Below, one piece after another: positions 37,048 to 54,037 of a stretch of 64,000 nucleotides of DNA. Location of the stretch: assembly GCF_036520495.1 (NCBI RefSeq), contig NZ_DATDJO010000016.1:971-64970 (forward strand), read 5' to 3'. The position numbers were made by a program, and so were the translations under genes. Numbering within the stretch: position 1 is the stretch's first letter; every line of letters begins with the position of its first letter. The notes below the pieces were generated by a model. The model did not search any database and was not told the origin of the DNA. It saw only the letters and a list, made by a program, of their open reading frames with translations. Origin of the DNA: Povalibacter sp. Its GTDB lineage: Bacteria; Pseudomonadota; Gammaproteobacteria; Steroidobacterales; Steroidobacteraceae.

Positions 37048-37208
37048 TTCTGGCTAACTGGCTAACTGGCTAACTGGCTAACTGGTGAGAATGGCTGCGA
37101 GGGTATTACGGGGGCAACGGTCGGATCTAAAAAAAATGCGCCCCGCAGGGCGCACTTTTCGCATTTTTCAGGCCGGTCAGCCGGTGAGCCGGTGAGCCCG
37201 TTGGCCAA
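37048..37208. repeat. Intergenic palindromic repeat, family B copy 1 (atpC|glmU)
   Basis: Four perfect tandem GGCTAACT units at 37052-37083. The opposing arm is GGCCGGTCAGCCGGTGAGCCGGTGAGCCCGTTGGCC (37171-37206). The atp terminator lies in the spacer. Confidence 0.85.
37129..37160 (-). terminator. Rho-independent terminator of the atp operon (usable in both directions)
   Basis: Minus strand reads GAAAAG-TGCGCCC-tgcg-GGGCGCA-TTTTTTTT, a 7-bp GC stem followed by T8, about 52 nt after the atpC stop. The plus strand also has a T-rich tail. Confidence 0.8.
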
Positions 37209-37211
37209 ATC

Positions 37212-37631
37212 TCACTGCTTTATCTTCCGCAGCTTCTCCAGCATCTTCAGCTGAGCCGCGGCGCGCAGCAGCTCGGCCTGCGCCTTGGCGCTGTCGATCG
37301 TGTCGCCACGATTGCGCAGGGCTTCCTCAGCAGCCTGTTTGGCGCTGAGGGCGGCTGCTTCATCGAGATCCTTCGCACGCACCGCCGTGTCCGCAAGGAC
37401 CGTCACGACATGTGGCTGAATTTCGATCGCACCGCCCGAGACGTAGAAGAACTGCTCGCCGCCATCCGGTGTCTGCACACGGACTTCGCCCGGCTTGAGC
37501 GTCGTCAGCAGCGGTGCGTGACGCGGCGCAATGCCGATCTCGCCCATGACGGCCGGCGCGAACACCATCGAGGCCTCGCCCGAGAAGATCTCGCCTTCGG
37601 CGCTGACGATGTCGACGTGAATTGTGGCCAT
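37212..37631 (-). CDS. atpC: F1 ATP synthase epsilon subunit
   Basis: 139 aa. ...[18 protein letters not shown]...GEIGI.P.H.PLLT.LKPG.VR. Confidence 0.9.
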
Positions 37632-37669
37632 ATCTCTTCCTGACTAGCGACTGACAGCTCGTCGCTGCA

Positions 37670-39088
37670 TTACTGCAGCGTTTTCGCCTTCTCGACCGCT
37701 TCTTCGATGGTGCCGACCATGTAGAACGCCTGCTCCGGCAGTGCGTCGTACTCGCCTTCGAGGATGGCCTTGAAGCTGCGGATCGTTTCCTTGAGCGGAA
37801 CCAGCTTGCCGGGGTTGCCGGTGAACACTTCGGCAACGTGGAACGGCTGCGACAGGAAGCGCTGGATCTTGCGGGCGCGGGACACTGTGAGCTTGTCCTC
37901 TTCCGACAGCTCGTCCATGCCCAGGATCGCGATGATGTCCTGCAGTTCCTTGTAACGCTGCAGCACGGCCTGCACGCCACGAGCGACGTTGTAGTGTTCT
38001 TCACCGATGACCAGCGGATCGAGCTGGCGGCTGGTGGAATCGAGCGGGTTCACGGCCGGGAAGATACCCAGCGCCGCGATCTGACGATCCAACACGACGG
38101 TCGCGTCCAAGTGCGCGAAGGTCGTTGCCGGCGACGGATCGGTCAAGTCGTCGGCAGGCACGTACACGGCCTGGATCGACGTGATCGAACCGGTCTTGGT
38201 CGAGGTGATGCGTTCCTGCAGCACGCCCATTTCCTCAGCCAGCGTCGGCTGGTAACCCACGGCCGACGGCATACGGCCGAGCAGCGCGGACACTTCGGTG
38301 CCGGCCAGCGTGTAGCGGTAGATGTTGTCGATGAACAGGAGCACGTCGCGGCCCTTGCCCTGCTCGTTCTTTTCGTCGCGGAAGTATTCGGCCATCGTGA
38401 GGCCTGTGAGCGCGACGCGCAGGCGGTTGCCCGGCGGCTCGTTCATCTGGCCGTACACCATCGCCACCTTCGATTCCGGCAGGTTCTGCAGGTTGATGAC
38501 GCCGGCTTCCGACATCTCGTGATAGAAATCGTTGCCTTCGCGAGTACGTTCACCGACGCCGGCGAACACGGACAGACCCGCGTGCGCCTTCGCGATGTTG
38601 TTGATCAGCTCGAGCATCGTGACGGTCTTGCCCACGCCGGCACCGCCGAACAGACCGATCTTGCCGCCCTTGGCAAACGGCACGAGCAGGTCGACGACCT
38701 TGATGCCCGTTTCGAGAAGATCCTGGCCACCGGCCTGTTCGTCGTACGCCGGAGCCGCACGGTGAATCGGCCAGGTTGTCTCGGTCAGCACCGGACCGCG
38801 TTCGTCCTGCGGATCGCCCAGCACGTCCATGATACGACCGAGGGTGCCCTTGCCGACCGGCACGGAGATCGGAGCGCCCGTAGCCTTGACCTTGAGGCCA
38901 CGCTGCAGACCTTCGGATACGCCCATGGCGATCGTACGCACGACGCCATCGCCCAGCTGCTGCTGCACTTCGAGCGTCAGGCCGCCCTCTTCGAGCTTCA
39001 GCGCTTCATATACTTTCGGGATGCTCTCGCGTGGGAATTCCACGTCGATGACAGCGCCGATGATCTGCACAATCTTGCCGGTAGACAT
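37670..39088 (-). CDS. atpD: F1 ATP synthase beta subunit
   Basis: [15 protein letters not shown], Walker A GGAGVGKT, and the DELSEED-like MDELSEEDK. Start trimmed to MSTGKIV at 39088 because the track ORF reads into repeat B2. Confidence 0.95.
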
Positions 39089-39099
39089 GTCGGGTCCTC

Positions 39100-39260
39100 G
39101 GGCTAACTGGCTCACTGCTCTGCTGGCCAATCTGGCCAGAAGCAAGTGAGCGCATGCCTCAAACTAAGCTAACAACTTCAATTCAATTCTGCATTCGACC
39201 TTGCCGCCTGCGCGTCAAGGCACTCTGTCTTTCTCGAGCCGGTCGACCGGTCGGCCGGTA
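39100..39260. repeat. Family B copy 2 (atpG|atpD)
   Basis: GGGCTAACTGGCTCACTGCTCTGCTGGCCAATCTGGCCAG ... GAGCCGGTCGACCGGTCGGCCGGTA. Abuts the atpG stop and the atpD start. Confidence 0.75.
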
Positions 39261-53399: not shown

Positions 53400-53400
53400 C

Positions 53401-53496
53401 CCGGCTAACTGGCAAACTGGCCAGAGCCAGAACCAAGCCGCATTGATGATTCTCTGTCCGGATTCTGGCCAGCAGACCGGTTTGCCAGTCGGCCAG
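53401..53496. repeat. Family B copy 6 (spoT|ridA)
   Basis: CCGGCTAACTGGCAAACTGGCCAG ... CTGGCCAGCAGACCGGTTTGCCAGTCGGCCAG. Confidence 0.8.
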
Positions 53497-53520
53497 TAAG
53501 CCTTCTTTATCGAGGTCCTC

Positions 53521-53907
53521 ATGTCGTCCCGCACCATCATCTCGACCCCCGACGCTCCCGCCGCTGTCGGCACTTACTCGCAGGCCGTGAAGGTCGGCAA
53601 CACCGTGTATGTCTCGGGCCAGATTCCCCTCGATCCCAGGTCGGGACAGCTGGTGACGAGTTCGATGGACGCACAGATCCGGCGGGTTTTCGACAATCTC
53701 AATGCCATCATCACGGCGTCGGGCGGTACGTTTGCGAGCGTGACCAAGCTCAACGTGTTCCTGACGGACCTCTCGCACTTTGCGCTGCTGAACCAGATCA
53801 TGGCGGAGTACTTCCAGGAACCGTATCCCGCGCGTGCGGCGATCCAGGTCGCGGCATTGCCGAAGGGCGCGGCCGTTGAGATGGATTGCGTGCTGGAACT
53901 CGGCTGA
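53521..53907 (+). CDS. ridA: RidA-family reactive-intermediate deaminase
   Basis: APAAVGTYSQAVKVGNTVYVSGQIPLDP...PARAAIQVAALPKGA.VE. Confidence 0.85.
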   Translation: MSSRTIISTPDAPAAVGTYSQAVKVGNTVYVSGQIPLDPRSGQLVTSSMDAQIRRVFDNLNAIITASGGTFASVTKLNVFLTDLSHFALLNQIMAEYFQEPYPARAAIQVAALPKGAAVEMDCVLELG

Positions 53908-53909
53908 TT

Positions 53910-54037
53910 GGCGTACGGGCTAGCCGGCCAACGGCCAACTGGCCAACTGGCGTACTGGCAAGATCAAGAGCACAGAACCTCCGGCTTCTGGCCGGTCGGC
54001 CAGTTAGCCCGTTAGCCAGTCCGCCAGTTGGCCGGCC
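53910..54037. repeat. Family B copy 7 (ridA|recG)
   Basis: GGCGTACGGGCTAGCCGGCCAACGGCCAACTGGCCAACTGGCGTACTGGC ... CTGGCCGGTCGGCCAGTTAGCCCGTTAGCCAGTCCGCCAGTTGGCCGGCC. Arms of about 50 nt. Confidence 0.85.

Follow-up and report, generated by a model that had tools for sequence, protein, structure and literature searches.

Facing arrays of tandem octamer words between core genes of Povalibacter sp. form a dispersed, lineage-specific repeat family

Cyanobacterial STRR sequences are tandem arrays of 7-nt words that lie between genes in about 100 copies per genome, usually as single direct arrays, and their length is thought to be set by slippage. To our knowledge, none of the short-word arrays of this kind (STRR, GGGAATC and TAACTGA), known for decades, has an established origin or function. 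The GGGAATC or (GGGANTN)n heptamers of Xanthomonas form 183-186 arrays per genome in X. campestris and X. axonopodis, of which 89-93% are intergenic, at a mean distance of 28 nt from the nearest open reading frame (ORF) (Rehm et al. 2015, PMC4692102). These arrays hold 2-26 units, usually about 4, their lengths and sites differ between related species, and 70-75 pairs per genome converge on opposite strands and are capable of forming stem-loops; the function of the arrays is unknown (PMC4692102). TAACTGA heptamers occur in marine Beggiatoaceae, Cyanobacteria and Bacteroidetes, with 169 direct sets versus a single indirect one (MacGregor 2015, PMC4679880). Here we describe seven copies of an element in which arrays of 8-nt words face each other between core genes, in a 64,000-nt stretch of Povalibacter sp., an uncultured soil bacterium of the Steroidobacteraceae (contig NZ_DATDJO010000016.1, positions 971 to 64,970, forward strand; hereafter the window). 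These octamer elements are a real, lineage-specific, dispersed family of non-coding repeats.

All seven sites were found where a preliminary description, made from the sequence alone, had placed them, including the four perfect GGCTAACT units at 37052-37083. On the plus strand, each site runs from GGCYRACT-type words through a unique stretch to the complementary words, and Tandem Repeats Finder detects period-8 arrays on both sides of every site. Strong period-8 self-similarity is limited to six segments in the 64 kb, every one within the seven sites, and control periods of 6, 7, 9 and 10 give 1, 2, 0 and 0 segments, respectively. Paired consecutive GGCNNACN words occur 26 times on the two strands, compared with 0.44 ± 0.69 expected from 200 Markov shuffles, and 24 of the 26 fall in the seven spacers. 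All arrays with at least three words lie outside ORFs in the window. On the side of the upstream gene, the array sets in -1 to 6 nt past the stop codon, and on the side of the downstream gene it ends 7-31 nt ahead of the start codon (12 nt in the case of atpD, whose start codon lies at 39086-39088). The gene names given earlier were upheld by NCBIfam for rsmG, parA, parB, atpA, atpG, atpD, atpC, glmU, spoT and ridA and by Pfam for recG, and three of these genes (atpG, parA and ridA) have an octamer element on both sides. The arms of the seven copies are as follows.

37052-37091, plus strand: copy 1 (atpC/glmU), arm at the glmU start, four perfect GGCTAACT words and a degenerate inner box GGTGAGAA
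37129-37154, minus strand: intrinsic terminator of the atp operon in the centre of copy 1, TGCGCCC-TGCG-GGGCGCA-T8, read from the sequence
37167-37206, minus strand: copy 1, arm at the atpC stop, GGCCAACG GGCTCACC GGCTCACC GGCTGACC GGCCTGAA on the minus strand
39101-39141, plus strand: copy 2 (atpG/atpD), arm at the atpD start, terminating in GGCCAGAA
39233-39259, minus strand: copy 2, short arm at the atpG stop, GGCCGACC GGTCGACC GGCTCGAG
40147-40186, plus strand: copy 3 (atpA/atpG), arm at the atpG start, GGCTAACT twice, GGCTTACC, GGCAAACT, GGAAGGAG
40194-40233, minus strand: copy 3, arm at the atpA stop, inner box GGCCAGAT
48144-48183, plus strand: copy 4 (parA/parB), arm at the parB start, terminating in GGCCAGAC
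48239-48278, minus strand: copy 4, arm at the parA stop, inner box GGCCAGAG
49096-49135, plus strand: copy 5 (rsmG/parA), arm at the parA start
49223-49255, minus strand: copy 5, arm at the rsmG stop, its outermost word overlapping the TAG stop codon by one base
53403-53426, plus strand: copy 6 (spoT/ridA), arm at the spoT stop, GGCTAACT GGCAAACT GGCCAGAG, identical in the independent contig L126 (see below)
53463-53502, minus strand: copy 6, arm at the ridA start, inner box GGCCAGAA, identical in L126
53910-53964, plus strand: copy 7 (ridA/recG), arm at the ridA stop, seven words and inner box GGCAAGAT, identical in L126
53986-54037, minus strand: copy 7, arm at the recG start, inner box GGCCAGAA, identical in L126

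We compiled word statistics from 51 in-register words of the 14 arms after setting aside four irregular units. Five positions are nearly invariant (G1 and G2 in 51/51, C3 in 47/51, A6 in 45/51 and C7 in 49/51, i.e. 88-100%) and positions 4, 5 and 8 are free, although the fixed positions are partly favoured by the way arm boundaries were recognised. The most frequent words are GGCTAACT (9), GGCCAACT (6) and GGCCGACT (4). An arm holds 2-7 period-8 units in the window, and 2 to more than 10 when relatives are included. On their inner side, most of the 14 window arms finish with a GGCCAGAR-like box, beyond which the sequence is rich in purines; this box is a feature absent from the preliminary description, which had also given copy-specific spacers of 15-100 nt. 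The centres are indeed unrelated from copy to copy (local alignment scores of at most 10), but their measured length is 7-89 nt. The centre of copy 1 holds the intrinsic terminator of the atp operon, with a 7-bp GC stem, a 4-nt loop and T8; its hairpin belongs to the minimum free energy fold of copy 1, and a consensus terminator scan did not list it. A consensus promoter scan detected no promoters in the centres, and Rfam gave 0 matches at the gathering threshold over the whole window.

Words that adjoin within an arm resemble one another slightly more (6.0 of 8 positions) than do words of different arms (5.7 of 8), and in copy 1 four identical words on one arm face a twice-repeated GGCTCACC on the other. 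These two observations lean only slightly towards the repeated regeneration of words proposed earlier. The pattern of fixed and free positions points to a sequence-specific constraint, such as recognition by a protein, biased conversion, or pairing whatever the register.

If the constraint is protein recognition, the arms would be arrays of binding boxes, along which a sequence-specific DNA- or RNA-binding protein recognizing GGCNNAC would polymerise with the 8-bp repeat, acting as a global regulator, as a nucleoid or segregation element, or as the recognition module of a transposase. The five conserved positions fit this proposal, and the words of Xanthomonas are built likewise. All seven pairs face inward with the same polarity, which has a chance probability of about 6e-5 under random orientation, and the copies cluster around parAB. 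Ribbon-helix-helix proteins are known to bind tandem boxes, such as MetJ at the 8-bp met boxes, ParG at parH with its 8-bp period, and omega at 7-bp heptads. A binding protein was also proposed for the related TAACTGA arrays (MacGregor, PMC4679880). We nevertheless consider a protein-box array unlikely. The Pfam scan of window ORFs provided no candidate protein, none of them carrying a relevant domain and several small ORFs having no match; the window contains at least three other word families of the same design, each of which would require its own protein; and, as said, the recognition of arm boundaries accounts for part of the conservation.

In order to compare the window with independent assemblies, we used Logan contigs of the soil metagenome run SRR25158247, the only run in which a contig matched the window RidA protein. 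Over 5289 nt that include copies 6 and 7, L126 matches the window at 100% identity, and contigs across copy 2 (38949-40075) and copy 3 (40046-40490) show 0 differences. Given this identity in independent contigs, copies 2, 3, 6 and 7 are not assembly artefacts. Contigs stop within the run of four perfect GGCTAACT units in copy 1, where the summed word depth is 728, compared with 13.5 in the flanks, and several contigs whose depth matches this genome terminate in the same GGCTAACT array and then run into other sequence. Together, these values indicate many further copies in the genome, in the community, or in both. Octamer arrays interrupt short-read assemblies of these soil bacteria.

The family was traced in other genomes with a signature of two words plus GGCCAGAR, for which about 0.5 chance matches are expected in the genome collection. 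The scan returned 20 matches, 9 of them in four genomes: Povalibacter uvarum DSM 26723, Steroidobacter sp. JBOHZJ01, the Steroidobacteraceae metagenome-assembled genome (MAG) CAZQYC01, and the unclassified gammaproteobacterial MAG MFD04850.bin.2.366. One site of the latter was fetched twice (L026 and L323), so the nine matches represent eight distinct sites. The loci of these carriers differ from those of the window and share its design of words, GGCCAGAR, a unique centre, YTCTGGCC and complementary words. Convergent paired arrays were also seen in L016, L026, L037, L145, L319, L323, L325, L329 and L331, solo arms in L025, L326 and L334, and elements between apparently divergent genes in L026 and L319. 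Contigs of CAZQYC01 often terminate in long, pure arrays that reach 10 units. No viral contig carried the signature. Since one carrier, P. uvarum DSM 26723 (Steroidobacteraceae), is in culture, binding proteins, transcripts and mobility are open to experiment. At the P. uvarum locus L334 (~2960-3130), TCCCGCGAAAGCGGGA hairpins lie beside the solo octamer arm.

A scan of the genome collection with exact words retrieved 45 loci from very diverse taxa, in which the inverted architecture is found only in Steroidobacteraceae-type loci, the rest being solo arrays. Solo GGCTAACT arrays of 4-8 or more units occur in Vibrio, Marinobacter, Saprospiraceae, Acidovorax, Psychrobacter, Nocardia, Calothrix and Prosthecobacter, some of low GC content (loci L001, L005, L009, L010, L021, L031, L038 and L042); as no control octamer was scanned, their over-representation is unproven. 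They may have a shared cause or may reflect mere database size. In a degenerate three-word scan, actinobacterial sequences, probably coding, dominate among the matches listed.

The preliminary description had asked whether orthologous intergenic regions are empty. The closest ParA matches (83-88%) come from Steroidobacter and Steroidobacteraceae MAGs and place the window in Steroidobacteraceae. In the closest relative, L046, gene order from recG to atpD is conserved with the window and the spacers are short: atpA/atpG is TGA-AACC-ATG (TGAAACCATG) compared with 108 nt in the window, atpG/atpD about 30 compared with about 170 nt, and rsmG/parA about 28 compared with 166 nt. The parA stop and the parB start, 151 nt apart in the window, share an ATGA overlap in L239. 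Most close relatives whose sequence was read directly have short spacers (from the parA/parB overlap through 2 to ~70 nt), and two have about 200 nt at parA/parB. Among 160 related parA-region loci (80 from genomes, 1.27 Mb, and 80 from metagenomes, 0.74 Mb; 2.0 Mb in all), double words occur at the chance rate and no element was seen in the spacers read. To judge from these comparisons, the octamer elements are extra DNA of this lineage. They show that the atp and par operons can carry 100-170 nt of hairpin-prone DNA, fixed between cistrons which in relatives overlap or adjoin, and this bears on how strict translational coupling needs to be. Two relatives carry other repeats in these spacers, i.e. 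a pair of REP-like palindromes CCCTCCCCCGTTCGACGGGGGAGGG in atpC/glmU of L051 (~19270-19600) and a solo (GCTTACCC)3 in parA/parB of L050 (~10800-10860).

As proposed in the preliminary description, RNA of the transcribed strand folds arm to arm into imperfect stems of 25-50 bp in all seven copies, with z-scores of -2.5 to -5.1 relative to shuffled sequences (-3.3 for copy 3 by the folding tool). Pairing falls on the invariant positions of the words, and mismatches occupy the free ones. The same description had taken the maintained complementarity of the arms as a sign of selection on structure, and this is not supported. Arms pair with their own partner about as well as with other arms, both for the seven window elements (mean score 15.9 vs 15.3, exact permutation p = 0.32) and for 16 elements from six genomes (17.1 vs 17.7, p = 0.83). 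Partner arms being no more complementary than non-partners, the pairing stems from the invariant word positions and not from compensatory evolution. The arm-versus-arm columns comprise 183 Watson-Crick pairs, 12 G.U and 29 A.C mismatches in the sense RNA, and 38 transversions. Due to the excess of A.C over G.U, the antisense RNA is more stable than the sense RNA by 8-15 kcal/mol in 6 of the 7 elements; selection at the RNA level would favour G.U, and its rarity argues against selection on the pairing of each copy. Copy-by-copy compensatory evolution of the arms is excluded. There may instead be selection for a slippage-proof hairpin, as the five invariant positions can pair whatever the register and the partner. 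The bias of transitions to A.C tracks gene orientation, not absolute strand. A mutational skew between replication strands was considered as its cause and rejected, because the bias goes with the orientation of the genes, whereas GC skew is weak and keeps one sign throughout the window.

These results bear on the proposal that the elements are functional intercistronic RNA hairpins, serving in processing by RNase III or RNase E, in protection of the upstream 3' end, or in insulation or tuning of downstream translation, for example in lowering atpG relative to atpA and atpD. Folding better than shuffles in 7/7 copies agrees with such a role, as do the location of the window copies between co-directional operon genes, the distances to stop and start codons, which leave room for a ribosome-binding site, and the bracketing of atpG, parA and ridA by two elements each; the analogous Xanthomonas arrays are mostly transcribed (PMC4692102). 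We regard the proposal as unlikely, since partner-specific complementarity is absent, the mismatches favour the antisense strand, and the terminator in the loop of copy 1 means that its two arms would seldom be on one RNA. In addition, elements of other genomes also lie between divergent genes or consist of solo arms, and at most of these sites relatives make do with short spacers, ranging from an overlap to ~70 nt.

The reading that we favour, although we put it as evenly poised between right and wrong, is that of a dispersed, slippage-prone repeat of foldback type, selfish or near-neutral, seeded by a trans-acting activity and remodelled by slippage. A short seed of words plus GGCCAGAR, usually as a facing pair, would be copied into intergenic DNA by an activity that is not encoded in the window. 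The arrays would then lengthen, shorten and partly homogenise through replication slippage of the 8-nt unit, and copies would persist only where the coding sequence stays intact, so that they come to occupy the space from a stop codon up to the next ribosome-binding site. An mRNA that contains both arms would acquire an imperfect hairpin of 25-50 bp, and cistrons which in relatives overlap or almost adjoin would come to be spaced 100-170 nt apart. Hairpin pairing would follow incidentally from the five invariant word positions, with co-option a possibility.

Several observations support this reading. Among them are the non-random, intergenic placement, the short spacers of relatives, the signs of high copy number, the lack of selection on the structure of individual copies, and the recurrence of the design with other words in the window and in Xanthomonas. 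First, GGCCAGAR recurs at many unrelated loci in several genera, which implies copying from a common source; a conserved inner box that is not itself repeated argues for such copying over independent slippage. Second, the variable number of units, perfect runs beside decayed words, the slightly greater similarity of adjacent words and the confinement to spacers fit a near-neutral foldback repeat. Third, elements between divergent genes, solo arms and the terminator in the loop of copy 1 suggest symmetry at the level of DNA, not an RNA logic.

Several observations weigh against the foldback-type repeat. The dissimilarity of the centres is unusual for a transposed unit, and five word positions conserved at 88-100% beside three free ones are not expected of neutral decay. 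At the outer ends of the seven copies there is no consistent direct repeat that could be a target-site duplication, and no defined terminus either, the outer boundaries being fuzzy and no tetranucleotide being shared across the copies; the preliminary description had likewise reported neither a GTAG head nor a target duplication, and the interior proved equally unconserved. It had also seen no RAYT or transposase in the window, in agreement with the scan of about 50 window proteins, among which no transposase, RAYT or integrase was found, so that a mobilising gene is missing there. Among the nearest relatives, about 84% identical in genes, no clean empty-site allele was found. The only matches in the metatranscriptomes were to conserved fragments of atpA and atpD from other organisms, with none to this organism. 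Finally, all seven elements are packed into a 17-kb region around parAB and the atp operon, in about 7 of the 17 spacers there, and none is present in the other 47 kb. This clustering, together with the placement of other word families at 5.8-22 kb, suggests local spread or a region-specific constraint.

A known type of mobilisation in trans would be that of REP or REPIN sequences by a RAYT (a Y1 HUH transposase) encoded elsewhere in the genome. The octamer family is intergenic, high-copy, hairpin-forming and lineage-specific, and several word families coexist in one genome, as do REPIN/RAYT pairs. REP/RAYT systems abound in the genomes of Xanthomonadales, a related order. We find this explanation quite improbable: a single arm consists of direct tandem words and is non-palindromic, there is no conserved GTAG-like head, the unit number varies, the centres are unrelated, and the window encodes no RAYT.

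At the other extreme, the elements could be of purely local origin, with slippage extending a chance seed in place and template switching supplying the inverted partner, and no copying between loci. According to the summary of Mrazek 2007 given in PMC4679880, long simple sequence repeats with units of 5-11 nt accumulate in some bacterial genomes. Solo (GGCTAACT)n arrays in many unrelated taxa and the solo (GCTTACCC)3 of L050 would agree with an origin in place. The same word together with the non-repetitive GGCCAGAR at many unrelated loci of at least five genomes, the identical polarity of all seven pairs, and partner arms without the extra similarity expected from recent templated copying make a purely local origin very improbable indeed.

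The same paired-word design recurs in the window with other words. A second family, at 9920-10026 and 19663-19747, has tandem decamers ACACGGGGNN (core CACGGGG) that face CCCCGTG across a short spacer; its arms are 28-30 nt long and 80-89% complementary, and related fragments occur at 5829-6017, 6603-6881 and 11886-11950; all are intergenic. In a third, at 10501-10661 and 21929-22065, the words are heptamers (TGAGAGT, TGATAGT, GGAAAGT, GGATAGC etc.) with A at position 3 throughout, and the same design of fixed and free positions gives arms that reach 38 nt, with 87% complementarity, again between genes. The recG/ubiA spacer (56175-56293) contains an imperfect palindrome of CTAGG-containing words, GGTGCTAGGGACTAGGCTCCAGG ... 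CGCCTAGGGCGTAGCACCTAGAGCC. It is conceivable, if improbable, that the octamer, decamer, heptamer and CTAGG palindromes and the Xanthomonas pairs are the products of one undescribed mechanism, either a foldback mobile element whose arms are protein-binding boxes or a dedicated enzyme that seeds and extends arrays at gene boundaries; GGC..AC. would then be the recognition code of a protein. Apart from these families, an AT-rich spacer of 212 nt at 60117-60328 (TTAAATATTCTTGTTTAATAACAAC...TTTTTTATTTATTGAAATTTTCG) stands out in this genome of 62% GC, upstream of a DUF2244 gene and cytochrome c oxidase genes.

The literature search did not find the octamer word strings, nor anything relevant on Steroidobacter repeats. 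The preliminary description had recognised no described REP, BIME, ERIC or MITE family in the elements. This remains correct as far as REP and MITE sequences are concerned, whereas the kind of element has been described, as convergent short-word arrays in Xanthomonas (PMC4692102). REP, BIME and REPIN sequences are similarly short, highly repeated, intergenic, hairpin-forming, lineage-specific, often in inverted pairs and present as coexisting families. Their unit, however, is itself a palindrome of 20-40 nt with a head tetranucleotide and a fixed length, and the octamer arms are direct words in variable number without a head, so we rejected this assignment. A MITE was rejected because target-site duplication, a sharp outer terminus, a conserved interior or size, and a related autonomous element are all lacking in these copies.

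Other candidates were discarded on single features. Integron attC sites (RYYYAAC...GTTRRRY) come within one mismatch of GGCTAAC and of GTTAGCC, but the flanks are syntenic core genes, not cassettes, and there is no integrase. The arms are not intrinsic terminators, as no T runs follow them and only the centre of copy 1 has such a terminator. The spacing of a sigma-54 promoter (TGGCAC-N5-TTGC) is incompatible with an 8-nt period, and a function of GGCTAACT as a stop in three frames would be lost in most variant words.

In architecture, the nearest analogue is the Drosophila FB transposon, with long inverted arms of short tandem repeats in variable number around a variable centre; FB elements are eukaryotic and much longer. 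The cyanobacterial STRR differ from the octamer family in unit, words and host group. The TAACTGA repeats are likewise abundant intergenic tandem words near start codons, share the core TAACTG (GGCTAACTGG), and have a scattered phylogenetic pattern like that of the solo (GGCTAACT)n arrays, which also extend across Cyanobacteria, Bacteroidota and Gammaproteobacteria. They differ in being direct heptamers that stand in forward orientation upstream of starts, whereas the octamers are 8 nt long and form inverted pairs, and at that position the complement AGTYRGCC is in the sense RNA.

The convergent (GGGANTN)n arrays of Xanthomonas are the closest known kind to the octamer elements. Both are built of short words in tandem, in which some positions are fixed and others free (2-7 units on either side of 7/7 sites in the window), lie between genes near ORF ends, form convergent pairs (7/7 window copies), and belong to related gammaproteobacterial hosts. 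The octamer family is distinguished by its unit of 8 nt and a different word, without a G3 tract and hence without a G-quadruplex ((GGGANTN)2 has 0 matches in the window), by the GGCCAGAR inner box, which is not reported in Xanthomonas, and by the fact that all seven window copies are paired and inside essential operons. As an example that is not G-rich, it shows that the paired-array design is independent of G-quadruplex formation.

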